From Halobacteriovoraceae bacterium (GTDB lineage Bacteria > Bdellovibrionota > Bacteriovoracia > Bacteriovoracales > Bacteriovoracaceae), in NCBI GenBank assembly GCA_963719505.1, contig CAVRCF010000001.1:1152001-1216000 (forward strand): a DNA stretch of 64,000 nt. Reading direction: 5' to 3'. The position numbers and the translations under genes are program-made. The notes beneath the pieces were generated by a model that made no database searches, was not told the origin of the DNA, and was given only the letters and a program-made list of their open reading frames with translations. This document shows positions 3,286 to 38,637 of the stretch, in pieces; the first letter of the stretch is position 1, and each line of letters opens with the position of its first letter.

Positions 3286-4900
3286 GAAGTCCAAAAAATA
3301 TATTTTTGTCACAGGCGGAGTTTCTAGTTCTCTGGGAAAAGGTCTTGCTGCTGCTAGTATTGCAAGCCTAGTTGAAAGACGAGGCATCAAGGTCAATATG
3401 TTAAAGATGGATCCCTATATTAACGTAGATCCTGGAACAATGAGCCCCACTCAACACGGAGAAGTTTTTGTCACTGACGATGGTGCTGAAACTGATCTTG
3501 ACCTCGGTCACTACGAGAGATTTACCACTTTGACGTTGAAAAAGAAAAACAACTTCACTTCTGGTCAAGTTTATTTACAAGTCATTGAAAATGAAAGAGA
3601 AGGAAAGTATTTGGGAAAAACCGTTCAGGTTGTTCCGCATATTACAAACGAAATAAAAAGAAGGATTCATTCCGCTGCGGAAGAGTCGGATGTCTTATTG
3701 GCAGAAATCGGTGGAACTGTTGGCGATATAGAATCGGGTCCCTTTATGGAATCGATTAGACAGTTTGCTCACGACGTTGGAAGTGAAAACGTTTTATTTG
3801 TCCACCTTGTGCTAATACCTTACCTACATGCAGCTGGGGAGTTGAAATCAAAACCCGCTCAGCATTCGGTAAAAGAGCTTCGAAGTATTGGGCTTTTCCC
3901 CAATATTATTATTTGTCGGGCCGATAGAGAAGTTGATGCTGATATTTTAGACAAAATCTCACTTTTTTGTAACGTCCCAAGGGCAAATGTTTTCCAATCA
4001 ATAGATCTGGATTCTATTTATAAAGTTCCACTGTCTTTTCATAAACAAGGTTTGGATACAAAGATCGCTGAGCTTCTTGGTATTTGGGCAAGTGAACCTG
4101 ACATCAAAGACATCGTGAAAGTTGTCTATAATATCGATAACCCTAAATCGTCTGTGAAAATTGGTATCGTTGGAAAGTATACCGATTTAACAGAGTCCTA
4201 TAAGTCTTTAGATGAAGCCCTAAGACATGGTGCCATTGCTAATCAGGTCGAATTAGAGATGATTTATATTGATGCTGAAGATATAGAAAAAGGCAAGACA
4301 CAAGAGCTTTTAAGTGTTGACGGTATTCTTGTTCCAGGAGGCTTTGGCCAAAGAGGAACTGAAGGGAAGATTGAAGCGATTCGAATCGCCAGAGAGACTA
4401 AAATTCCTTTTTTTGGAATCTGTCTGGGGATGCAATTGGCCATGATCGAGTATGCGAGAAATATGGCCGGAATAAAAAATGCCACAAGTATGGAGTTTGA
4501 TAAAGGTGGAGAATTCATCATCCACTATATGGAAGGACAGACTAAAGAAGGTAACAAAGGTGGAAGTATGCGCCTTGGGGCTTATGATTGCTCTCTTTCA
4601 AAAGGGAGTCTTGCCCATAAGATTTATAATAGTGAATTGATTTCGGAAAGACACAGACATCGTCTCGAAGTGAATAACGCCTACACTGAAAAACTTACCG
4701 AAAAGGGAATGATTGTCTCGGGTGTAAATGAGAAATTAAATTTGGTAGAAGTCGTTGAGTTGGGAGATCATCCTTTTTTCATAGCGTGCCAGTATCATCC
4801 CGAATTTAAGTCCAGCCCTTTTAAGCCTCACCCTCTTTTTGAGACATTCATAACGGCGAGCTTAAAAAGAAAGGGTGAGCGAGCTGATCACAAAAGTTAA
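3278..4900 (+). CDS. pyrG: CTP synthase
   Basis: FVTGGVSSSLGKG, DPGTMSP, GICLGMQ, RHRHR, QYHPEF; likely GTG start at 3278. Confidence 0.99.
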   Translation: MSKKSKKYIFVTGGVSSSLGKGLAAASIASLVERRGIKVNMLKMDPYINVDPGTMSPTQHGEVFVTDDGAETDLDLGHYERFTTLTLKKKNNFTSGQVYLQVIENEREGKYLGKTVQVVPHITNEIKRRIHSAAEESDVLLAEIGGTVGDIESGPFMESIRQFAHDVGSENVLFVHLVLIPYLHAAGELKSKPAQHSVKELRSIGLFPNIIICRADREVDADILDKISLFCNVPRANVFQSIDLDSIYKVPLSFHKQGLDTKIAELLGIWASEPDIKDIVKVVYNIDNPKSSVKIGIVGKYTDLTESYKSLDEALRHGAIANQVELEMIYIDAEDIEKGKTQELLSVDGILVPGGFGQRGTEGKIEAIRIARETKIPFFGICLGMQLAMIEYARNMAGIKNATSMEFDKGGEFIIHYMEGQTKEGNKGGSMRLGAYDCSLSKGSLAHKIYNSELISERHRHRLEVNNAYTEKLTEKGMIVSGVNEKLNLVEVVELGDHPFFIACQYHPEFKSSPFKPHPLFETFITASLKRKGERADHKS

Positions 4901-15834: not shown

Positions 15835-15911
<77 letters not shown>

Positions 15912-16009
15912 TTTTAAGTCATTTCAAGTACTTGCAATCATTATGTTTTAAGCCCTAAAGTCGAACCCGTAAAGGTTCGATAAACCTATGAGCTTAAAAT
16001 GAGGTTTTT

Positions 16010-17251
16010 ATGCAAGTGAGAAAAGTAAAAAACAGTGATGGGTCTGTGCGTTATCGGTACAGGTACTATGAGAAAGGTAAATTAAAGTCTGTTCTCAACA
16101 GTGACCTCCCTTATCATCCAAAAACTGATGAACAAGCAGAAGTACTAAGGAAGAGATTAGAGTCAACCTATGAGGCTGCCAAGTTAGAAACGAAGAGCCA
16201 AGAAGAATGGCACGAGAAATACTACAGCTATAACTCCCTATTTGAGACTTTCGCAAAGTACCGCAAAAAAAAAGCTAAGAACTCCTATAAAGACAAGCTT
16301 TCATATTTTAGAAACTATGTTCTTCTCTACTTTTTAGAAATCCAAAAGCTTGAGAATCTTGAGACCTGGAAAGAAAGGCGGTACGACTTCGTATTGTGGC
16401 TAAGAGAAAGAGATAAGATGCGAGGAGAAGGTAAATTAGCTTCTCAGACTATCAATCATATAATCACAGAGTTTAATGTATTTATTGATTTAATGGCTCA
16501 GACAGGCAAAATAGAAGCTCCTTTTACTATAAATTTACTGCACAAGGATGAACTCAACAAAAGAGGAGCTGAGGCGGTCCTTTCCGATGAAGAAAGTGAA
16601 CTTCTTTTAGAGGAGCTAGCAAAATTTGATGTAAAAAGCTCTGAAATCTTCAGGGTGCTTCTAAATACAGGTATGAGATACAACGAATTGTTAAGCCTTG
16701 AGAGATCTAGTATTAAAAAGGGTGAAATCCCCGAAAAATCACTGACCAAAGCACTCAACTACGGAATGGCTAATAAAACAATGTATTGTTATATTGTTCT
16801 AAGCTCTCAAATAGATAAATCCACAGGTAAAAGAAAGCCTCTTAAGTCAAAGAAGCAAATCTCTATCGCTGACTCAAGGTTTGTTCCTATTTATGATAAA
16901 GAAACATTCAATATTTTAGTTAGGGCCTTAAAAGAATCTAAAGCTAAAGAAGAAGAAACTTTATTTCACTACTTTTACAAGTATTCTCGATTAAATAGAG
17001 CTTTGAAGAAAGCTTATGATCAAATTGGTCAGTACACAAAAAAGTATTCTTATAAGTCTTCTCACTCTGCAAGGCACACGTATGCTACTTATTTATCTCA
17101 AATTGATCCATCATCTTATTTAGCGACGACTATCTTAGGGCATAACTATCAAACATCGGCTCGGTATAATCACACTCACGCAATATTAATGAAAAAGCTA
17201 ATTAATGAAGCTAATACGGTTGATATAGATGACTGGGAAGAAGTTGCATGA
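16010..17251 (+). CDS. Tyrosine recombinase / integrase
   Basis: TGMRYNEL, HSARHTYAT, LGH...Y catalytic residues; adjacent to attL. Confidence 0.93.
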   Translation: MQVRKVKNSDGSVRYRYRYYEKGKLKSVLNSDLPYHPKTDEQAEVLRKRLESTYEAAKLETKSQEEWHEKYYSYNSLFETFAKYRKKKAKNSYKDKLSYFRNYVLLYFLEIQKLENLETWKERRYDFVLWLRERDKMRGEGKLASQTINHIITEFNVFIDLMAQTGKIEAPFTINLLHKDELNKRGAEAVLSDEESELLLEELAKFDVKSSEIFRVLLNTGMRYNELLSLERSSIKKGEIPEKSLTKALNYGMANKTMYCYIVLSSQIDKSTGKRKPLKSKKQISIADSRFVPIYDKETFNILVRALKESKAKEEETLFHYFYKYSRLNRALKKAYDQIGQYTKKYSYKSSHSARHTYATYLSQIDPSSYLATTILGHNYQTSARYNHTHAILMKKLINEANTVDIDDWEEVA

Positions 17252-18052: not shown

Positions 18053-18190
18053 GAAATGATTCTTAAACTCTTTAATGATTAAAGTTCATGCTGTTAAACT
18101 CTCTCAGGAAAAGTGTAAAACAGGATTAGATGATAAAGATTTGTGTGAAATTATTTAATAGTAAGATTAGTTTAATTAAAAGGATGATTT

Positions 18191-18529
18191 ATGAAAAATT
18201 TATTATTAGGGATATGTTTCTTCGGTTCATTTTACTCTTATGCCTGTCAAGTTGAAATAAAAAATTTAAATAATACTAATGACGTTATAAAAAGTAAGGT
18301 GGACAGCTATCCCTTCAATATATCTCTTCCTGGTACAAAATGGACTTGTGCAATTATGAAGTCTCCTGGGGAGCCCATTTATTACCAAACTTTATGCACT
18401 ATTGGTGATGAATATAGTGTCATATCTACAGCTGTTCATCGAGAAACAAAGTTCGCAGAAATTGGTCTTGCTGAAAAAAAGACAAAGAAAATGTACCAAA
18501 TTTTACTAAAAGAGTGTCATGTAAATTGA
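18191..18529 (+). CDS. Small secreted Cys-containing protein (paralog of 17681)
   Basis: AAGGA RBS, signal peptide, ACQV...YPF...WTC. Confidence 0.75.
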   Translation: MKNLLLGICFFGSFYSYACQVEIKNLNNTNDVIKSKVDSYPFNISLPGTKWTCAIMKSPGEPIYYQTLCTIGDEYSVISTAVHRETKFAEIGLAEKKTKKMYQILLKECHVN

Positions 18530-21576: not shown

Positions 21577-21855
21577 TTATTCGTTTAAGGCAAGGTTTTC
21601 TAAATCTCTCTGAACATATTCTAGATTTTGCTCAGCTATTTCGAATGTAATAGTATTTTCTAACTCTCTCTCTATAGATTCTCTCAAACTCGGTCCAACT
21701 TTTCCGCTCTCGTATTCTTTTTGATAATAAGCTTCTTTATCGAACTCACTCATAGTAAAGTGCTTGTATTCAGCAAGTGTTTCTATATACTGCTCAACTA
21801 CTTTGTTTTCGTACCTGTCTCTTTTAATATTTTCATACTCTTGCATATCCAACAA
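21577..21855 (-). CDS. Hypothetical acidic protein
   Basis: ORF overlapping the upstream gene end. Confidence 0.55.
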   Translation of the reverse strand: MLDMQEYENIKRDRYENKVVEQYIETLAEYKHFTMSEFDKEAYYQKEYESGKVGPSLRESIERELENTITFEIAEQNLEYVQRDLENLALNE

Positions 21856-22593: not shown

Positions 22594-23781
22594 CTAAAAC
22601 TTAGAGATCAGCTGAGCTGTTCCATTTGGATAGATAATTACAATTGAAACCGTCCAAGAAGATGCCCCGCCCCTGGCATAGTTTTGCTTCGAGATATCAG
22701 TTAAATGACCTACGGAGAAGTTCTCTCCTGAATATCCCCCAGCGTGATTATGACCTGTACACGATTTTGGTATGTATTTCTCAGCTGATCTATAATTAAA
22801 GCGAGCCCCGTTACTGCCTTTGTGACCATGGAGACTCATTTCGAACCCACACTCTTGAACCGGAGTATCATCCATAAAATTAATGTTTCTGTTTATTTTA
22901 TGGTATTTTTTCAGTGCTATTTCTATAGTAGGAACTGACTGATTAAGAGATAATGTATTTCTCATAAGTTCTGCTTTTAACTCATGAAGAATAATTTTAT
23001 CAATTTCTGCCGCCTTTCTAAACTTCTCGTCGTCTTTTAGAAAGCGATCTAAAAAGTCATCATGATTTGACTCAACGATATTGAGTGTTTTAAATTTAGA
23101 AGAAATCTTATTAAGAGTTTTGGCTAGGGAAGCAAGTTCTTTTTCTAATGAAACCCCATAAGCTATCTTATTTGTTATATACATAGAGGAGTTAACCTCG
23201 TGCGGGTTTAAACTGATGCCGTCGAAGACATCTCCAACATAAATATTCTTAACTCCTACTTTTTGAGCGTAGTTAGTTGCCCAAGCTAACGATTTCTTAT
23301 CATGAGTAAATTCGTGTAGATCTCCGAACAGACAAGCTTTTGCGTTGCCTTTTTTCCATCCATTCTTTGTAAATAATATTCCGTTATCATAGACTTTATT
23401 GTCTCTTTGAGTGAGATTTCTGATTTCAAACTTAGTATCGTTTTTAACCGAGACTAATAGGGCATATGGCCCAACACCTAAACCAACCATAGCTCTTGTC
23501 GATCTGTTTACTGTCGGTATATGACTTAAGTAGTTCTTATTAGATGACATATAGATAGCGCTGGACCCTTGAGATGCTCTACAGGCAGCCATTTCGCTGA
23601 TCTGAGCACAAGGAAAGACAACAAGATTCTTATTAAACTCTATAGTTACGTACTTATTCTTATTGTTCTTAACAAGTAAGCAGAGCTTAGCCTTATATCT
23701 CTTCTTGATCTGAGCTAAAATCTCAGAACTAAATTCACCAAGGTTCTCTTCTCGAATAATAATATAGTTGGTTGCCTTCAT
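22594..23781 (-). CDS. Calcineurin-like metallophosphoesterase, phage T5 A1-like
   Basis: GDLH, GDVFD, SNHD, HGHKGSNGAR, GHNH, Y..G.SSW...IIYPNG. Confidence 0.75.
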   Translation of the reverse strand: MKATNYIIIREENLGEFSSEILAQIKKRYKAKLCLLVKNNKNKYVTIEFNKNLVVFPCAQISEMAACRASQGSSAIYMSSNKNYLSHIPTVNRSTRAMVGLGVGPYALLVSVKNDTKFEIRNLTQRDNKVYDNGILFTKNGWKKGNAKACLFGDLHEFTHDKKSLAWATNYAQKVGVKNIYVGDVFDGISLNPHEVNSSMYITNKIAYGVSLEKELASLAKTLNKISSKFKTLNIVESNHDDFLDRFLKDDEKFRKAAEIDKIILHELKAELMRNTLSLNQSVPTIEIALKKYHKINRNINFMDDTPVQECGFEMSLHGHKGSNGARFNYRSAEKYIPKSCTGHNHAGGYSGENFSVGHLTDISKQNYARGGASSWTVSIVIIYPNGTAQLISKF

Positions 23782-25397: not shown

Positions 25398-25868
25398 ATG
25401 CATCTTAATAAATTAATATCAGCACAACGATTAGCGGCATCAGAGCAAAATAGCTTTCCGGCTACAGTATCTCCTAAGGCTGATTACGTAATTAAATTTT
25501 TGTTTGCTGTTTTGCTATATCCTCTTTATTTACTATTCAAAGTTAAAGAGAGTATTTTAAATTCTTTTAAAAATAGAAGAACCACCAAGGTATGGGATGA
25601 CGAAGATCAAGAGTTTAAAAACACTCAAGCCGCCAGTGAAACTATCGCCTACGATACAAACCTTCTTCATAGCATAAGAATTATCTTTTCTTCTTTTATG
25701 ATGATTGATGATGATAACAAAGAAAGAAGGTTTTATCACCAATACTACAACGTCACCGAGCTAATCGCTTATGTATCATCACTATATAGACATGTGGACT
25801 ATATTTTACTTTGCGTGTTTTATACAGGGTTCTTGGTAAGATTCATGAAATTCGTATTGGAGTCGTAA
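25398..25868 (+). CDS. Membrane protein
   Basis: AGGAGG RBS, two hydrophobic segments, TAATG coupling to the next gene. Confidence 0.7.
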   Translation: MHLNKLISAQRLAASEQNSFPATVSPKADYVIKFLFAVLLYPLYLLFKVKESILNSFKNRRTTKVWDDEDQEFKNTQAASETIAYDTNLLHSIRIIFSSFMMIDDDNKERRFYHQYYNVTELIAYVSSLYRHVDYILLCVFYTGFLVRFMKFVLES

Positions 25869-28465
25869 TGGAAGATAAATATATGTATTTAATTATTGCC
25901 GTTTGCCTTTTATTTGTAATCCCGGTAATAAAGTTACTTGGTTGGCTTTTAAGTAAGATTATTCGTGTTAATCCAATTCATGATAAGAATTATTATGACA
26001 AGATTAATAGAGAGAATAATAACGGGGGAGAGACTCCATATGGGGAGTTACTTACCTTAAGAGATCTTACTGTTATACAAAAGACTCGAAAGGTTTATAA
26101 CTATACAGATAATCTTGGATACCAAAGAAGAGAAGAGAGGGAGATTGAAGAGACTATTTATCCATCTGTTAAGAAGATAAAAAATGGTGTCCAAATCCAT
26201 TTCAGCGAAGAGTTAAGGAATACTGAGTTTACAAAAGATAGCTATACTCGATATATCGCTGATGTTTTTAACCAGAATTCTGTTACTGAGACTAAGAAGC
26301 TCCTAATGGTGAGAACTCCAAATCCATATATTGTTAATTACTTCCAAGTACATCCAGTTAATTACATGTTTAAGACGCCAATTGATGAGGATAGTGAGTT
26401 TAAAGCCAAACTCGATAAAGTATTAGATAAAGACAGCGCAGAACTTCTATTTGGAGAACCTCAAGTTGAATTAAACGTTCCGGATCAGATAGTTTGGCCA
26501 TTAACAGCTTCTCCTCATGTATTAGTTGCTGGTCAGACAAGATCCGGTAAGACTAAGACTATACTTAGTTTTATAACTCAAATTGCTACTGTCTATCCAG
26601 AGTCTAAATTTTTCTTCGCTGATGGTAAGAGTTCACCTGACTATGATCATTCTGCGGAATTTTTATCATCTCTACCTGTAGCAAAACCCCACCATAGTGA
26701 AGATCCATTAGTGAATCTCGCTTACATGGTTGATAAGGTGTGGGCAGAATATGAGAATCGTAAGAGATTATTTGAAGAACTAGCAGTTAAAGGAAATTCA
26801 TGTAGTACCTATATTGAGTATAATAATTATGTAGATGAAAAGCTCCCTCGTGTGTTTTTATTTATTGATGAATTTGCAGCGTTTTGTTTACTTGCCCCAG
26901 ATAAGGTAGCCTCTCTATTAACAGTCAAAGGTACTCTATTTAACAAGATTAGAAGATTGCTCGCAGAATCGGCTTCATATGGGTTTAGTATTATAATAGC
27001 TTCTCAAAGGGTACAAAATACGGATTTCCCAACTGCAATTCGTGATAATCTAACTACGTGGCTTATCCATTCAGTAAATGAGAAAGCTGCTGAATTTCTT
27101 GATCTTAAAGGGAAGGTGGGGAAACTTAAGCCTGGAGCGTTCATATTGAAGATACAAGGTTTAAGGTGTGAAAACTCTGGCGAAGCTAATATCGAATCAA
27201 GATTGCCTTATGTCGGTAACGAGCCTCAAAAGGTTAAGACCTTAAAGAAGGATATAGTTAAAGAATCTTTTGATGAAGATTACATTTATACTACTGGACT
27301 TGATACTGATTATTCCAAGCTTCCTCCTAATTCATTAAAGAAATATGTAAAGAACCTATTTTGTGTAAGAGAAGGTTTTGAAGTTATCAAGAATGAAGAT
27401 GCTGAACATGATCACCTTTCTCTGTTTGTTAAGAAAGGTAATAAGCAATATGCAATTGGTTTCGTTGAAGTAGATGAGCTTATAGATGAAACATTCTATA
27501 CTCGTTTAAATCGATTTCTTTCAGATGAAGAGAAGCTAATGCAGAAGATTTTTTTTGTAAGAGGTAATATTACCTCAAAAGCTAAAGAAACAAATATCTC
27601 TGAACTAGTTGATATGAACGGTGATATCGCCCTAATACAGCAGGATTATGTGCGTAGGCTTAAGAAGGCTAAGAAGCTGTATGATGATGGGGATAGTGAA
27701 GAGATCTTCTCTGCATTACTTGTTGGTATCAAAGCAGATGAGAAGAAAGAAGCTCTTTTAATCGACAAGAAGGATGCTGAGCTAGGAAGTGTTGAGATCT
27801 CTATTAACGAATTAGAAAGGATCAATAATCTCTCAGGATCTTCTGATGCCCAAAAGATAGCTAAAGGGGAGCAGTTTGAGAGATTCGTTCACGCTCTATT
27901 TAGACAAATTGGTTGGACTACATACACCCCAGAACTGCTATTCGCTAAGAGGATCTATAAAAGACCTGGCGATGTTGGGGATTTAGGGCTGGATATGTTA
28001 TTAGCTAAAACAGATACGGATCTCAGAGAACTATCGCAAGAAGAAGCTGATAATAGAGTTGCTGTACAGATCAAGAATTGGAACTCAGCAATTCCGGCAA
28101 AGGTTCTTGGTGAAGTATTGAGATCCTACCACAATTTTAAATGTCTCAAGAATGGAACTCCTATCAAAAAAGGGATGGTTGTCTCAACGTCCACATACAC
28201 CCAATATACAAAGTTAGAGGCTTCAAATCAAGGAATAGAGCTCATAGGATACAATGACCTAAGAAAGCTCGTTATAGACGCTGTGAGGGACGCTCAGAGC
28301 GCAGGAGAAGCACATCAGGCTATCCCTTTTGCTGAGATGGATAGAGATGAGCAAATCCTTCATTTAAACGAGCAAGGACTAAGTTTGAGAGATATCGCTA
28401 CTAGAGTAGGGGTTAAGTCTCCATCTACTGTTAGGAACGTATTGAAAAAAGCGGAGGCTGCATGA
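25868..28465 (+). CDS. FtsK/SpoIIIE-family ATPase fused to Mrr-like restriction endonuclease and C-terminal HTH
   Basis: N-terminal TM; PHVLVAGQTRSGKT Walker A; FIDEF Walker B; ASQR; GEQFE...GDLGLD...AVQIK; GLSLRDIATRVGVKSPSTV. Confidence 0.88.
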   Translation: MEDKYMYLIIAVCLLFVIPVIKLLGWLLSKIIRVNPIHDKNYYDKINRENNNGGETPYGELLTLRDLTVIQKTRKVYNYTDNLGYQRREEREIEETIYPSVKKIKNGVQIHFSEELRNTEFTKDSYTRYIADVFNQNSVTETKKLLMVRTPNPYIVNYFQVHPVNYMFKTPIDEDSEFKAKLDKVLDKDSAELLFGEPQVELNVPDQIVWPLTASPHVLVAGQTRSGKTKTILSFITQIATVYPESKFFFADGKSSPDYDHSAEFLSSLPVAKPHHSEDPLVNLAYMVDKVWAEYENRKRLFEELAVKGNSCSTYIEYNNYVDEKLPRVFLFIDEFAAFCLLAPDKVASLLTVKGTLFNKIRRLLAESASYGFSIIIASQRVQNTDFPTAIRDNLTTWLIHSVNEKAAEFLDLKGKVGKLKPGAFILKIQGLRCENSGEANIESRLPYVGNEPQKVKTLKKDIVKESFDEDYIYTTGLDTDYSKLPPNSLKKYVKNLFCVREGFEVIKNEDAEHDHLSLFVKKGNKQYAIGFVEVDELIDETFYTRLNRFLSDEEKLMQKIFFVRGNITSKAKETNISELVDMNGDIALIQQDYVRRLKKAKKLYDDGDSEEIFSALLVGIKADEKKEALLIDKKDAELGSVEISINELERINNLSGSSDAQKIAKGEQFERFVHALFRQIGWTTYTPELLFAKRIYKRPGDVGDLGLDMLLAKTDTDLRELSQEEADNRVAVQIKNWNSAIPAKVLGEVLRSYHNFKCLKNGTPIKKGMVVSTSTYTQYTKLEASNQGIELIGYNDLRKLVIDAVRDAQSAGEAHQAIPFAEMDRDEQILHLNEQGLSLRDIATRVGVKSPSTVRNVLKKAEAA

Positions 28466-30013: not shown

Positions 30014-30288
30014 AAAAGCGACCACCAATAAATTTTATATAAAAAAGCGACCACCAATAAATTTTATATAAAAAAGCGACCACCATTAAATTGTTTAAAA
30101 GCGACCACCTCAAGTGTTTGAAATATCGATCAGGTGATCCATTTTAAAAAGCGACCACTAGTTTTGCTAAGTATTTGATACTACATAAAAGCGACCACCT
30201 TTAATTGGATCTGGTCCGAAAAAAGGACGTAAATAGCCGTAAATATGCTGGATTAGGTGGTCTCACTAATAATTAATAAAAGCGACCA
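30014..30288 (+). repeat. Iteron-like array AAAAGCGACCA(CC) x7
   Basis: Copies at 30014, 30043, 30072, 30097, 30147, 30187, 30278; inverted GGTGGTC at 30256; IHF consensus at 30168-30180. Confidence 0.9.
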
Positions 30289-30304
30289 TTAAGAAGAAAT
30301 CTTA

Positions 30305-30904: not shown

Positions 30905-31459
30905 CTAAGCTACAGAACGTTGCCATTCCTCATCTTCGTCATCAAAGTGAGAATCAAGTAAAGTCCCTCTGTAAAAAAGCTCAGGAAAAGCATCCACAAC
31001 GGAATCGATCTCCTCAATTGTAGTGTCTAGGGCAATGATCATGTGATTCAAATCCATTTCAGTCTGTAGTAGCTGGAAAATTTGTCTTTGTTTCGAATTC
31101 AAACGACTAAGGCCTTCTACTGGTATCTCGACAGCTACATCTTTAAACTGTACTGAAGAGAGCGGTGGAACTATCCCTGTTGTTATTGCTATCCTGGAAT
31201 CCCAATCAATGATTCTTTTTATAGCTTCTTCATTAATTAAACTGTTAATAGAAGCGGTGATATGAGTTTCGAGATCAGATTCTTCCGAATCCCAAGTTCT
31301 CAAGCCTAGCCAAATAGCGATATTTCCTAATTGTGAAACTTCTTCTCGATAGAAAGAGTCCTCAATCATAATTGAGTCAGCAATTTTCTGAATCAACGGT
31401 CTAAATTTAGCTAATTGGTTTTTAAAAGTCTCTTTTTCGCTTTTCTTTGAGTTTTTCAC
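30905..31459 (-). CDS. Degenerate sigma-70-family-like protein
   Basis: FRPLIQKIA...EEVSQLGNIAIWLGLRTWD...LETHITASI resembles region 2; LSRLNSKQRQIFQL resembles the start of region 4; GGAG RBS plus GTG. Confidence 0.6.
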   Translation of the reverse strand: MKNSKKSEKETFKNQLAKFRPLIQKIADSIMIEDSFYREEVSQLGNIAIWLGLRTWDSEESDLETHITASINSLINEEAIKRIIDWDSRIAITTGIVPPLSSVQFKDVAVEIPVEGLSRLNSKQRQIFQLLQTEMDLNHMIIALDTTIEEIDSVVDAFPELFYRGTLLDSHFDDEDEEWQRSVA

Positions 31460-31805: not shown

Positions 31806-31833
31806 CTTTAACATAATGATACTTATCTAATAA
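31806..31833 (-). other. dif-like XerC/XerD recombination site
   Basis: Minus strand TTATTAGATAA-GTATCA-TTATGTTAAAG: 11-6-11 layout; XerD arm matches TTATGTTAAAT at 10/11. Confidence 0.75.
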
Positions 31834-31943
31834 TACACTCACTTTAATCTTATTATTACACCTCATCTCTAATTTATTATTCCTCATTTATATATCTACC
31901 ACTAAACCTTTTTTTTCAGGGATTTTCACTTTTGACGATAAAT

Positions 31944-33125
31944 TTACGCTACTAATTTGTAGCTAGAATCTATATCGTAAAGAGCTCTCATTGTATCTAC
32001 CATTATGATGTATAATTCGTCTCGATGCTGCTTTTTTACGATTATCGAATCATGTACAGTCAGACAAGCGATCTCTTTACTATTTAGCACCTTTATACAC
32101 TCTATCATGATGCTAGAATCTTCTTTCTGTAGTCTAGTTCCTTCTTGTCTGTAGAAGAACTCAGAAATGGCTTTATGCTTATCTTCAATCGCTGCAACAA
32201 GAGCTACAACCTTCTTTCTAACCCTCTTTAGGTTAAATTCATCAAATCCTTCTTGAAGCTTATTAAAAATCGAATTCACAGCAACCCCGTAAGATTTAGA
32301 ATTTAACATTATTAAAAGGGCTATTTTGATATCATCTCTCGAGAATCCATGGATGTTATAAATATCTTCAGGTCTTTTAACATCCTTTGCTAGATACAGA
32401 AGGGTTGGGTGCAGAGCTTTAAAATCGATTTCTACCGTTGCTTCGTTGTCAAATGTGATCGTTTCTCTTTCGGATTTTGATAAATTCGTGCAGCTATTAT
32501 AGATTCGGCCGCCTAAATTCAAATCGGAAGAACTATAGACAATGCTGAGTTCCAGAGAACATAAAGGCCTGAAGGCTGTATCAATGATAGTGTTGTTTAG
32601 AAGCTCTACGTGTTTGCTCATTATCGAGTCTCGGTACTGGATCTCAGTTTTTTTATCAGCATCTATTTGGACTTGGACCTTAGTCTTTATACCTTTTTTG
32701 GATTTGTCTTTTTCCTGAGCCCGGGCTCCTCTCCAAATCACCGTCCTAACTAACACCTTATCTATCTCATCCTTATTTTCAGCAAATATCTTTTCGAGTT
32801 TCTGGGTACGCTTTATTCTTGTTGGTATCTTTTGCTTCTCACTTACTGAATGCATCACTAGAGTCACATAGGCATTATTATGAAGCCACTCTATAATAGG
32901 CGATACTGTATACTGATTAAAACTTAATGTCCTGAATTTAGACACTCCAACCAATTCATGCTCGAGATAAAGATTGATTAAAGTTAAGTGAAGGAAATCG
33001 CGGTGCTTATGCCCTCTAAGCTTTTTACCTAAAGATTTGATGTATTCATCGTAAATCAAATCTGTAACTATCCCTGAAAAAGGCTTGATATAATCTCTGA
33101 ATTTCTTGTAATCAACTTGATACAT
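31944..33125 (-). CDS. Stand-alone family-A polymerase-like palm-domain protein
   Basis: GGRIY; motif A EIDFKALHP; motif B-like RDDIK; LQKEDS; motif C TVHDSII; GGAGAG RBS before ATG 33125. Confidence 0.7.
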   Translation of the reverse strand: MYQVDYKKFRDYIKPFSGIVTDLIYDEYIKSLGKKLRGHKHRDFLHLTLINLYLEHELVGVSKFRTLSFNQYTVSPIIEWLHNNAYVTLVMHSVSEKQKIPTRIKRTQKLEKIFAENKDEIDKVLVRTVIWRGARAQEKDKSKKGIKTKVQVQIDADKKTEIQYRDSIMSKHVELLNNTIIDTAFRPLCSLELSIVYSSSDLNLGGRIYNSCTNLSKSERETITFDNEATVEIDFKALHPTLLYLAKDVKRPEDIYNIHGFSRDDIKIALLIMLNSKSYGVAVNSIFNKLQEGFDEFNLKRVRKKVVALVAAIEDKHKAISEFFYRQEGTRLQKEDSSIMIECIKVLNSKEIACLTVHDSIIVKKQHRDELYIIMVDTMRALYDIDSSYKLVA

Positions 33126-33413
33126 TATTCTCTCCATTTGAAGTTTCAAAAAATGTTGAAACTTGGCCATAGCTCCATTATACCTTCGAAGATTTTTTCT
33201 CTCGATGCCCCATAAACATTGGTCTTCAGAGTCTTTTTAAGTGATTGATTTCCCTTCCTTAAATTACAAAGTGTCAAATAGCTGAACAGCTTCACCATTC
33301 AAAGTGTTTAGTTTGAATACAAAGCCTTGAGCTCTGAGTTTTTGATTATTTTCGTCTCGAACTAAAAAGGTATATTTACAGAAACAGAGAAGAAAGAAAC
33401 AAAAGGAGTTCAG

Positions 33414-34697: not shown

Positions 34698-35951
34698 ATG
34701 AAAAAAATATTTTTTTTACTATTAACAATATCTAGTTTGATCTCGTGTAGCAAAAAGGAAGACACGAAATTAGTTGATGCATTCGACATTCCACCAGTTA
34801 AGCAAACTAATAATACGCCTGTGAGTTCTAATGATTCAGTTCTAACGAGGTTCAATAGAGTTTATAATGACTCTCTACAAGCTTCTGATAGCGATTCTGA
34901 CCCACTTGTGTATTCATTGGTGACTAATGCCTCAAATGGAGTTGTTGTAATTACAGATAGCTCTTCAGGCTCTTATACATATACTCCCAATACTGGTCAT
35001 GTAGGAGCTGATAGTTTTGAGTTTAAAGTAAACGATGGAACAGAAGACTCTAACACTTCTCTTGTGAACATTGACGTTAAAAACCCCGAAACAATCTATG
35101 TCGGCACTAGCAATGGACTATCAATTTCTACTGATGGCGGTTTAACTTTTGTAAATAGACTGGAGACTTTAGATGTTAAAGATATTCAAATAACGGAGTC
35201 GGGCGATATCTATGTCGGAACAAACTTCGACATTTATATTTCTACTGATGGAGGTTCAACCTTTACTTCAAGATACTATGGTAGTGATGATTTCGTTAGT
35301 ATGTATATTGACAGCTCAGGCGCTATCTTTGTTGCGACAGACTGGGAACTGCTAAAGTCTACAAATAACGGACTGTCATTCAATTCTTTACTCTCTTCTT
35401 CATTGTTACAATCGGTAGATGGCGATGATTCAGGAAATATTTATGTTAGTTATGAGCTCTTTGGTTTTTCTATCTCTACTGATGGAGGAAGCAACTTTAC
35501 TAATTATTCAACAGCAAATGGACTTGGAAGTGATGATTTGTTTTCTTCTTTTGTAGATACTAACGGAACAATCTATGCATCAACCTTTAACGGTTTATCA
35601 ATTTCGACTGATGGAGGAAGTAACTTTACTAACTATACAACTGTAAATGGACTTGGAAGTGATGATTTGTTTTCTTCTTTTGTAGATACTAACGGAACAA
35701 TCTATGCATCAACCTTTAACGGTTTATCAATTTCGACTGATGGAGGAAGTAACTTTACTAACTATACAACTGTAAATGGACTTGGATCTAATCAAATAAC
35801 TTCAGTTTTTGCTGATGGCTTTGGTGGTGTTTACGTAGGAACTGTTAATAGTTTCAATATATCATTCGATAGTGGAGAGACTTTCATTAATTTAACAACA
35901 GCTGCCGGTTTAGCCGGTAATGGCGTCAGTGAATTAGTAGTAATAGAGTAG
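34698..35951 (+). CDS. Lipoprotein with Ig/cadherin-like domain and Asp-box (BNR) beta-propeller repeats
   Basis: Lipobox LISC; YTYTPN..G.DSFEFKVNDG; repeated STDGG.F. Confidence 0.85.
   Translation: MKKIFFLLLTISSLISCSKKEDTKLVDAFDIPPVKQTNNTPVSSNDSVLTRFNRVYNDSLQASDSDSDPLVYSLVTNASNGVVVITDSSSGSYTYTPNTGHVGADSFEFKVNDGTEDSNTSLVNIDVKNPETIYVGTSNGLSISTDGGLTFVNRLETLDVKDIQITESGDIYVGTNFDIYISTDGGSTFTSRYYGSDDFVSMYIDSSGAIFVATDWELLKSTNNGLSFNSLLSSSLLQSVDGDDSGNIYVSYELFGFSISTDGGSNFTNYSTANGLGSDDLFSSFVDTNGTIYASTFNGLSISTDGGSNFTNYTTVNGLGSDDLFSSFVDTNGTIYASTFNGLSISTDGGSNFTNYTTVNGLGSNQITSVFADGFGGVYVGTVNSFNISFDSGETFINLTTAAGLAGNGVSELVVIE
35516..35786 (+). repeat. Exact 129-bp intragenic tandem duplication
   Basis: AAATGGACTTGGA... 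recurs at 35516, 35645, 35774 with identical intervening sequence. Confidence 0.9.
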
Positions 35952-38086: not shown

Positions 38087-38609
38087 CAGCTTTTTCCTTG
38101 TTATATTGTGTGCAAAATTCACTTTACAATATAGATTGTAACACACTGCGCTGGAGTTTGCAACGCTTCTTGTCAGATTTATAGTTTTCAACCTCCAAAA
38201 ATTCAAAAAACCTCATAAAATTACTAAATACCTAAATTTATCCTCATAAAACTCATCAAAATCTCTAAATACCCTAATAAAGATATTTCAAACTCTCTTG
38301 ATGCCTTGCTGTAGGAGCTCTCAGTCTATCTGGTTTTTTTCTGTGCGGTATAATTAGAGCTATGGGCAAGATTTGAAGAATTTCTTCAGAGTTCTGAAAG
38401 TCTGTATTGGATTACTAATGCTGATCTCAATCATTGGAAGAGATCAAAAGGCCAAGGATGGTCAATATCCAATCAAAAACTCAAAGCAAACTAGCAATTT
38501 AGTCCGGCATTGTTAGAGCTATGGCCAAGATTTGAAGGTTTTATAAGTCCCTAAAAACCCACTTTATTGACACTTTAATGAGTAAAATCTATTATTTAGG
38601 CAACTTTAG

Positions 38610-38637
38610 GGTTCGAATCCTGCTGGTTGCGCCATTT
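38610..38637 (+). repeat. attR core (duplicated tRNA-Arg 3' end)
   Basis: Identical to 15887-15914. Confidence 0.97.

Follow-up and report, generated by a model that had tools for sequence, protein, structure and literature searches.

The polymerase-like gene and the element that carries it

The window analyzed here is a stretch of 64,000 nucleotides (nt) from the genome of a Halobacteriovoraceae bacterium (contig CAVRCF010000001.1, positions 1,152,001 to 1,216,000). This report concerns one of its genes, which is predicted to encode a winged helix joined to a minimal family-A polymerase and which lies within an integrated element at a tRNA-Arg gene. The coding sequence is on the minus strand at 31944..33125. 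An earlier note on this DNA, made from the sequence alone, had described the product as a stand-alone polymerase-like protein of about 393 amino acids (aa), and this gene model was upheld. The open frame on the minus strand spans 31944-33170 (408 aa) and contains two candidate ATG codons, at 33125 and 33170. A Shine-Dalgarno-like GGAGAG lies 6 nt 5' of ATG 33125, and the gene call of a public copy of the protein (P0002, 97-98% identical) starts at residue 16, the methionine encoded by this codon; on account of that spacing and that gene call, ATG 33125 (393 aa) is likely the better start. ATG 33170 has GGAG just 2 nt 5' of it, and a promoter-like -10 hexamer ends close by, at 33177. Residue numbers throughout refer to the 408-aa frame, in which M16 corresponds to ATG 33125.

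The gene is single-copy in its genome and is present in two of the 61 related genomes searched, the window's own included, which therefore indicates a mobile gene. Two copies of a perfect 28-nt direct repeat (100% identity) delimit an integrated element of about 22.7 kb around it. The first, attL (15887..15914, plus strand), comprises the last 25 nt of the tRNA-Arg(TCT) gene (15835-15911) and 3 further nt; the second, attR, lies at 38610..38637 on the plus strand. A tyrosine integrase gene adjoins attL (16010..17251, plus strand; Pfam Phage_integrase, E 9.2e-10; phrog_1, E 2e-25). A near-identical public copy of two of the element's proteins sits on a contig of 22,652 nt, close to the size of the element. 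The element has no capsid genes, and no helicase or other polymerase was found among its scanned open reading frames (ORFs). Downstream of the polymerase gene follow, in order, a 484-nt spacer, a gene for a sigma-70-like protein, a gene for a secreted-looking protein and an iteron-like array.

Predicted structure

Family alignment A1, from which the protein was modeled with AlphaFold2, comprises the query and 84 of its 150 best HMMER relatives, chosen at roughly 340-520 aa (85 rows; overall identity to the query 19-32%). The model has a mean predicted local distance difference test score (pLDDT) of 84.5 and a predicted template modeling score of 0.76; pLDDT is 90-98 over most of residues 220-400 and falls below 50 at residues 142-144 and 146-166. 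Three parts make up the predicted protein: a MarR/PadR-like winged helix (residues 22-143; 32742..33107, minus strand), placed by structural alignment and profile matches; a basic, low-confidence linker (residues 144-170; 32661..32741, minus strand), placed by pLDDT and by the starts of Pol I-type alignments; and a polymerase core (residues 171-408; 31947..32660, minus strand) with a long helix, a beta-hairpin bearing R222, a palm and compact fingers. The earlier note had described the protein as free of exonuclease and helicase, and the model agrees with it. The basic N-terminal region that it mentioned is a Lys/Arg-rich stretch at about residues 100-170. In the model, the hairpin strands 209-212 and 220-224 carry G221 and R222, and the fingers contain a helix (278-290) that follows the strand 243-250. 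Helices 123-141 and 171-192 are parted by the low-confidence segment 142-166 in the thumb region, and the linker may be the tip of the thumb.

Searches of the Protein Data Bank (PDB) with this model returned polymerases of one superfamily. Foldseek gave 13 matches at E <= 0.001, with a probability of 1.00 for the match to the palm fold, and all 46 rows listed were either family-A DNA polymerases (apicoplast apPol, Bst, Taq, Klenow, Aquifex and mycobacterial Pol I, Pol nu, Pol theta) or mitochondrial RNA polymerases. VIA-align, which is independent of Foldseek, compared the model with 48,161 PDB representatives, and each of its ranks 1-16 (Z 13.4-8.1) was either a Pol I-type DNA polymerase or a T7-like RNA polymerase. 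The best was apPol (Z 13.4, 224 residues aligned, 3.6 A), followed closely by yeast mitochondrial RNA polymerase (Z 13.3, 221 aligned, root-mean-square deviation (rmsd) 3.1); Klenow scored Z 12.9, T7 RNA polymerase Z 12.7 (337 aligned, rmsd 8.8), T7 DNA polymerase Z 12.2 and N4 RNA polymerase II Z 8.1. Eight of the 16 top alignments begin at model residues 140-148 and run to the C-terminus. The right-hand family-A palm with mini-fingers expected by the earlier note is thus predicted, and the fold and family assignment can be made with high confidence. The polymerase assignment derives from the predicted structure and the motif register and not from sequence statistics. The core is predicted to be a stripped-down family-A nucleotidyl transferase of about 240 residues, with an arginine hairpin, a catalytic Asp pair and an R-x3-K motif but without domains for proofreading, 5'-nuclease or helicase activity, and the arginine of the hairpin would contact the template.

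From rank 17 the VIA-align matches are mainly MarR-type regulators, aligned over about residues 22-143 (76-103 residues) at Z 8.1-6.8, which is a range where common folds can score. The A1 profile, searched against PDB sequences, likewise reached PadR/MarR chains at profile positions 55-145 (best E 0.0064). By analogy with such proteins, the winged helix would be a sequence-specific binder of double-stranded DNA.

Conserved active site

The motifs named by the earlier note are located as it had placed them. Motif A (E247-I-D249, followed by Phe; 32424..32432, minus strand, codons checked) contains D249, a predicted metal-binding aspartate. The motif B helix (R278-DDI-K282-x7-N290, in which Leu precedes and Ser follows the Asn; 32301..32339, minus strand) has Asn in place of the Tyr of Pol I and T7 RNA polymerase, and motif C (Val followed by H373-D374-S375; 32046..32054, minus strand) has the family consensus IHDSF. 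In A1, eight residues are invariant (85/85): G221, R222, R235, E247, D249, Y271, K282 and H373. D374 and N290 are kept in 84 of the 85 rows, R278 and S375 in 82, D269 in 79 and H254 in 77. Because the catalytic columns are nearly fixed across 85 aligned relatives, the motifs are evidently not products of chance.

Such conservation bears on whether the polymerase-like domain is still catalytic. The protein could be a DNA-binding regulator or a partition-type protein whose core has lost its activity, a suggestion for which the resemblance of the N-terminal domain to MarR/PadR repressors and the absence of the canonical YG of motif B both speak. However, the Asp pair, the hairpin Arg and R-x3-K are kept in 82-85 of 85 rows at 19-32% identity, which is the pattern of an active enzyme, and a non-catalytic protein is considered very improbable.

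Alignment of A1 by hhalign with the Pol I polymerase domains of the window's genome and its relatives (14 in all) gave a score of 28.7 (P 0.0099) and a colinear set of registers. The family's GGRFY..Q falls on TGRLSS..PNLQNIP at the hairpin, ELDY on ADYSQ of the host Pol I at motif A, LQxxDS on IQGTAAD, and IHDS on VHDE at motif C, where the host Pol I reads QVHDEL. Against T7 RNA polymerase, a believable register was obtained at motif C only. The corresponding motifs in the T7 record are D537-GSCS-G542, R627-x3-K631-x7-Y639 and LIHDSFGT at 809-816. As far as the motifs can tell, the family is thus a mosaic, Pol I-like at the hairpin and motif A and T7 RNA polymerase-like at motif C.

Family size and representation in sequence libraries

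The family is large, yet has no Pfam, NCBIfam or PADLOC model and is "hypothetical" in every library searched. HMMER, run exhaustively over 1.84 billion representatives, yielded 4,636 clusters at E <= 0.001, of which 1,703 reach E <= 1e-10, the counts being of representatives at 50% identity; a word-indexed protein search found only 7 relatives. The 150 best HMMER relatives are mostly 400-480 aa long and have about residues 205-398 in common. In PHROGs the protein matches phrog_4756, annotated "unknown function" (E 7.8e-44, residues 88-392), and in the protein atlas it meets unnamed clusters only. Pfam gave nothing below E 0.6 (the best being Peptidase_C3, E 0.6) and no domain at E <= 0.1; searches of the protein against NCBIfam and PADLOC, and against the PDB with phmmer, gave no match, and a locus search with the single protein found no relatives among viral or metagenome contigs.

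Comparison with TV-Pol, CcPol and Pol I

A minimal family-A polymerase of this kind has a precedent in the TV-Pols, which are already known and barely characterized. These globular proteins, 400-600 residues long, are built on a minimal core of superfamily A and are described as having a two-helix thumb, an invariant Arg in a hairpin, two Asp in the palm, and a conserved Asp and R-x3-K in the fingers, and as never being joined to a nuclease (Iyer et al., 2008, Biol Direct 3:39, PMC2579912). They were predicted in the same work to be near the ancestral minimal form of the Pol I-type and T7-type polymerases. One subset carries an N-terminal domain and is found beside gamma-delta resolvases, lambda-type integrases or transposases and in restriction-modification islands (PMC2579912).

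Comparison was made feature by feature against the text description in that paper. Corresponding features in the present family are the hairpin with its invariant Arg (R222, 85/85), aligned with TGRLSS of Pol I; the palm, which resembles an RNA recognition motif, with its two Asp (D249, 85/85; D374, 84/85); the fingers after the first palm strand, with D269 (79/85), R278 (82/85) and K282 (85/85); the lack of an attached nuclease; and the mobile-element setting with an integrase. The taxa named in the description also overlap with those found here (Rhizobiales, Rhodobacterales, Methylobacterium, Flavobacteriales and delta-proteobacteria). The protein therefore appears to fit TV-Pol on its defining features, as compared by description and not by alignment. 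It differs in that the N-terminal domain, uncharacterized and all-helical in the description (PMC2579912), models here as a MarR/PadR-like winged helix; in that the integrase of the element is not adjacent, being 15 kb away on the other strand; and in that the element has no D5-type helicase. The predicted winged-helix identity is a new detail on the family; so are its size, the lack of any model for it in domain libraries and its occurrence in model phages.

In Microcystis phage Ma-LMM01, the guessed TV-Pol is MAP_030 (L106 22746-24266, minus strand), a 506-aa hypothetical protein adjoining two transposase genes. Its motif C reads IHNS, compared with IHDS in the family, and it may be an inactivated relative. 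PF00476 picks out the ordinary DNA polymerase of this phage, at about 157-158 kb, and not a TV-Pol.

The only TV-Pol with bench work behind it is the atypical CcPol of SCCmec, and full-text literature searches from 2019 and from 2020 onward returned no bench study of a TV-Pol besides it. Together with its partner MP, CcPol carries out primer-independent DNA synthesis for which both catalytic Asp are essential (Bebel et al., 2020, eLife, PMC7581432), and the pair is regarded as a DNA primase-polymerase (PMC7581432; Rice, 2023, PMC10061031). Like the present protein, CcPol has a family-A catalytic domain with two catalytic Asp (D169 and D324) and belongs to an integrative element; it was assigned to TV-Pol by Iyer et al. 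The Asp pair is 125 residues apart here, compared with 155 in CcPol. CcPol requires MP, a partner with an oligonucleotide-binding (OB) fold, and is encoded in an operon with the helicase Cch2, whereas the neighbor here is sigma-like and there is no helicase. It also keeps the ribonucleotide-excluding Glu and the Phe of Pol I, whereas the present family has His and Leu/Asn. The passages searched of a 2023 reclassification of PolA place CcPols near a canonical subfamily and mention no winged-helix branch.

Pol I enzymes (Klenow, Taq, Bst, apPol) are the best structural matches to the predicted core (Z 13.4-11.6, about 224-240 residues aligned), and they agree with it in register at the hairpin, motif A, Q..D and motif C. 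The protein nevertheless lacks the exonuclease domains and has no match to Pfam DNA_pol_A (PF00476) at E <= 1, whereas the host Pol I matches this model at E 1.2e-157. Motif B has N-S and not Y-G, with Leu/Asn for Phe, and motif C has HDS and not HDE.

T7-like RNA polymerases and nucleotide choice

Three features of the active site bear on the sugar preference. In Pol I and CcPol, a Glu five residues beyond the Asp of motif A helps to exclude ribonucleotides (PMC7581432); here that position is His (H254) in 77 of 85 rows, and in T7 RNA polymerase it is Gly (G542). The O-helix Tyr of Pol I and T7 is Asn (N290) in 84 of 85 rows, and motif C, IHDSF, is identical to residues 810-814 of T7 RNA polymerase, where Pol I has VHDE. 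With a gate His, an O-helix Asn and IHDSF together, the sugar preference therefore cannot be read from the sequence.

The protein could thus make RNA, either as a minimal single-subunit RNA polymerase or as an RNA primase, guided by its winged helix to a site-specific start, with a catalytic core (about 240 residues) well below those of the T7 or N4 RNA polymerases in size. In addition to motif C and the loss of the gate Glu, the structural scores favor this, since the yeast mitochondrial enzyme (Z 13.3) ties with the best DNA polymerase (Z 13.4) and other T7-like RNA polymerases follow, with T7 at Z 12.7 and further scores of 9.6 and, for the small N4 RNA polymerase II, 8.1. Some phage relatives also occur alongside a primase and a DNA polymerase that are encoded separately, and one stands at the head of an early operon (see below). 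Several differences run the other way. The size is about one quarter that of the T7-like enzymes, and no promoter-binding N-terminal domain or specificity loop was recognized; there is no Pfam RNA_pol match and no match at the sequence level. N290 stands for T7 Y639 and H254 for T7 G542, and a His at the gate could still block a 2'-OH. The GGRFY..Q hairpin, the ELDY motif A and Q..D align with Pol I, not with T7. The element's own sigma-70-like gene downstream suggests, mildly, that the host core enzyme transcribes it. RNA synthesis is judged unlikely. If it did occur, no smaller T7-type RNA polymerase or RNA primase would be known, and thousands of integrative elements would have the enzyme in common with phages, such as ICP1, that are believed to depend on the host for transcription.

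Genomic neighborhoods and phage relatives

The surroundings of the family were surveyed in genome loci that match LP[VI]HDSFIV, a pattern with a 21-row alignment behind it: of 248 matching stretches, 240 could be confirmed, and the survey used the best 80, a biased sample consisting mostly of Pseudomonadota. Neighboring ORFs within 5 kb were clustered, and one representative per cluster was scanned against Pfam. The largest cluster, of tyrosine integrases, occurs in 49 of the 80 loci, and 43 of its 53 members are on the same strand as the polymerase gene, with a median position 1 kb upstream. Serine resolvases form the second (26 loci), and smaller clusters include methylases, ResIII/HsdR-type helicase-nucleases, a helix-turn-helix (HTH) protein and a relaxase. 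These neighborhoods match the 2008 description of the TV-Pols with an N-terminal domain, as given in the text of PMC2579912.

Among 50,697 phage records, 235 contain homologues, including phages of Rheinheimera, Vibrio (ICP1 among them), Aeromonas and other hosts. Many Vibrio phages of 120-140 kb carry a homologue, and some Vibrio phages have two copies. The 11 best matches in BFVD are full-length two-domain proteins (E 7e-20 to 3e-15). Both ORF100 of Vibrio phage ICP1_2012_A (L107 4026-5693) and gp041 of Rheinheimera phage Barba19A (L108 8365-9672) are annotated "hypothetical protein", and a literature search on ICP1 ORF100/gp100 returned no relevant paper. The Barba19A homologue heads an early operon.

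Surroundings of this kind raise the question of whether the protein replicates its element at all. It may instead be an accessory polymerase that serves in defence, counter-defence, repair or gap filling at integration or excision; the islands that hold many of the relatives are rich in restriction-modification genes, and phages with a copy also have full replication modules. One relative (P0126, 937 aa) is a fusion in which a DRT4-type defence reverse transcriptase (residues 11-509; PADLOC Drt4, E 8.2e-176) precedes the polymerase-like domain (residues 719-926). A further parallel is the primase-polymerase of Thermus ICETh2, deletion of which reportedly left replication of the element unaffected and which has been tied to defence against incoming DNA (PMC7693054). 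On the other hand, P0001 and the closest full-length relative, P0010, match no PADLOC model, and the commonest immediate partner is an integrase or resolvase, as would be expected of a core gene of the element more than of cargo. An accessory role of this kind is judged improbable, though it deserves to be kept in view.

The only other copy among the 61 related genomes, in G026 (L004/L007 10451-11659, minus strand), contains one in-frame TAG. Around it are transposase, S24 peptidase and NUDIX genes, and the copy may be in decay.

A possible role in priming or replication

Judged from the motifs, the predicted fold and analogy with related systems, the likeliest reading, with about an even chance, is that the protein acts in priming or replication of the element, as a primase-polymerase or a replication initiator. 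In the mechanism proposed, the 22.7-kb element would leave the tRNA-Arg gene by excision, and the winged helix would direct the polymerase core to one of the element's sites. At that site the core would begin a short strand de novo or extend a 3' end, and host replisome proteins would take over afterwards, since neither a helicase nor a processive polymerase is encoded on the element. The binding of DNA through the winged helix, the priming step, the choice of nucleotide and the link to the iterons are each presumptive. The same logic, in which a DNA-binding module is coupled to a primer-making module, is seen in ColE2 Rep and pRN1 ORF904, the origin-binding initiator primases of plasmids; the fold differs, theirs being that of the archaeo-eukaryotic primases and the one predicted here a family-A palm.

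An obvious candidate for the site is the iteron-like array (30016..30289, plus strand), 1.6 kb from the polymerase gene. Seven copies of AAGCGACCAC make it up, six of them exact and one near, and the first three are spaced at 29 nt. This sequence has 10 matches in the window, compared with 1.4 expected, and 7 of them are within the array, which may be an origin or an operator of the element.

A number of observations weigh against the proposal, some of them against the polymerase assignment on which it depends. Neither the protein nor the A1 profile reached a polymerase in searches of PDB sequences, the profile reaching winged-helix regulators, and the hhalign statistics that link the family to Pol I are weak alone (P 0.0099). 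The A1 profile found nothing at E <= 1 in Ma-LMM01, and MAP_030 aligned to the family with P 0.013 only, although with the same motif order. The gate His, the O-helix Asn and the T7-like motif C described above tell against it as well. With respect to partners, no helicase or single-stranded DNA-binding (SSB)-like protein is encoded beside the gene, unlike the arrangement of CcPol, MP and Cch2. The iteron array is flanked by two genes for secreted-looking proteins, and such arrays are not a feature of the family, being found in 3 of the 80 loci and at no fixed position, by a strict criterion (at least four exact 10-mers within 300 nt) that may miss degenerate repeats; iterons were therefore dropped as a general partner of the family. 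Finally, phage Barba19A has its own Toprim primase and DNA polymerase (gp027 and gp026), so the homologue there is not the sole replicase and may have another role.

If the assignment to TV-Pol is right, the branch of TV-Pols with an N-terminal domain, at 4,636 clusters, is very large and is found in well-studied phages. The family would bear on what the smallest family-A core can do, on how a repressor-like domain might aim a polymerase at a site, and on whether these elements prime with DNA or RNA.

Sites flanking the gene

The spacer of 484 nt downstream of the polymerase gene, which has no ORF of at least 50 aa, opens with a tract of 100 nt without G (31819..31918, plus strand; C-free on the coding strand) that starts 26 nt past the stop codon. 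This G-free tract had been pointed out in the earlier note and is a real feature: it is the longest in the window, whereas in 200 shuffles the longest run averaged 53.7 nt and reached 81 nt at most. Its other claims about the flanks fared less well. A match to the integration host factor (IHF) consensus is present at 33238-33250, but such matches number 8 in the window against 7.98 expected, and with their number at chance level the site was dropped as evidence. The hairpins proved to be just imperfect inverted repeats of 10-16 nt, which occur in both flanking spacers. No dif-like site was found beside the gene; the best match in the window, at 21609, has 9 mismatches, by a crude scan with a 28-nt dif consensus.

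Two further one-base-free tracts of about 100 nt occur on the plus strand, at 38185-38281 (G-free) and 18122-18219 (C-free). All three fall inside the element, have no C on the local coding strand and exceed every other run of this type in the window, and those at 31819-31918 and 38185-38281 have the word ATGAGG in common on the coding strand.

Other genes of the element

The 184-aa sigma-70-like protein is encoded by the next gene downstream of that for the polymerase, also on the minus strand (30905..31459). It has weak matches to Pfam Sigma70_r2 (E 0.021) and to NCBIfam sigma-70 models (E 0.0024 and 0.025), and scores 0.96 to Sigma70_r2 clusters in the protein atlas. No relatives except its own copy were found in a collection of 5.8 billion proteins, and an AlphaFold2 model made without an alignment has a pLDDT of 36.5. 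The idea that this neighbor is an OB-fold SSB partner of the polymerase was rejected, because its profile and atlas matches are to sigma-70.

Two larger genes may be concerned with DNA transfer. An 884-aa protein (25811-28465, plus strand) combines an FtsK/SpoIIIE P-loop domain, an Mrr-type restriction nuclease domain and a C-terminal HTH domain, and could be either a DNA translocase for transfer or a defence protein. It also matches the PADLOC models mad8 (E 7e-18) and SspH (E 2.7e-13). A 395-aa phosphoesterase-like protein (22594-23781, minus strand) matches phrog_1745, 'DNA transfer protein' (E 1.8e-50). A homologue of the latter is encoded in G026 (L007 11731-13983, plus strand; 28% identity over 273 aa, E 2.7e-27), divergent from the polymerase-like gene there, and the pair may travel together.

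The remaining genes of the element include a second, short integrase-like ORF, an HNH nuclease and several secreted-looking proteins. A 417-aa lipoprotein-like product with Big_9/cadherin-like and Reg_prop repeats is encoded by the ORF at 34698-35951, within which three tandem repeats of 129 nt (100, 93 and 67% identity) occupy 35463-35849.

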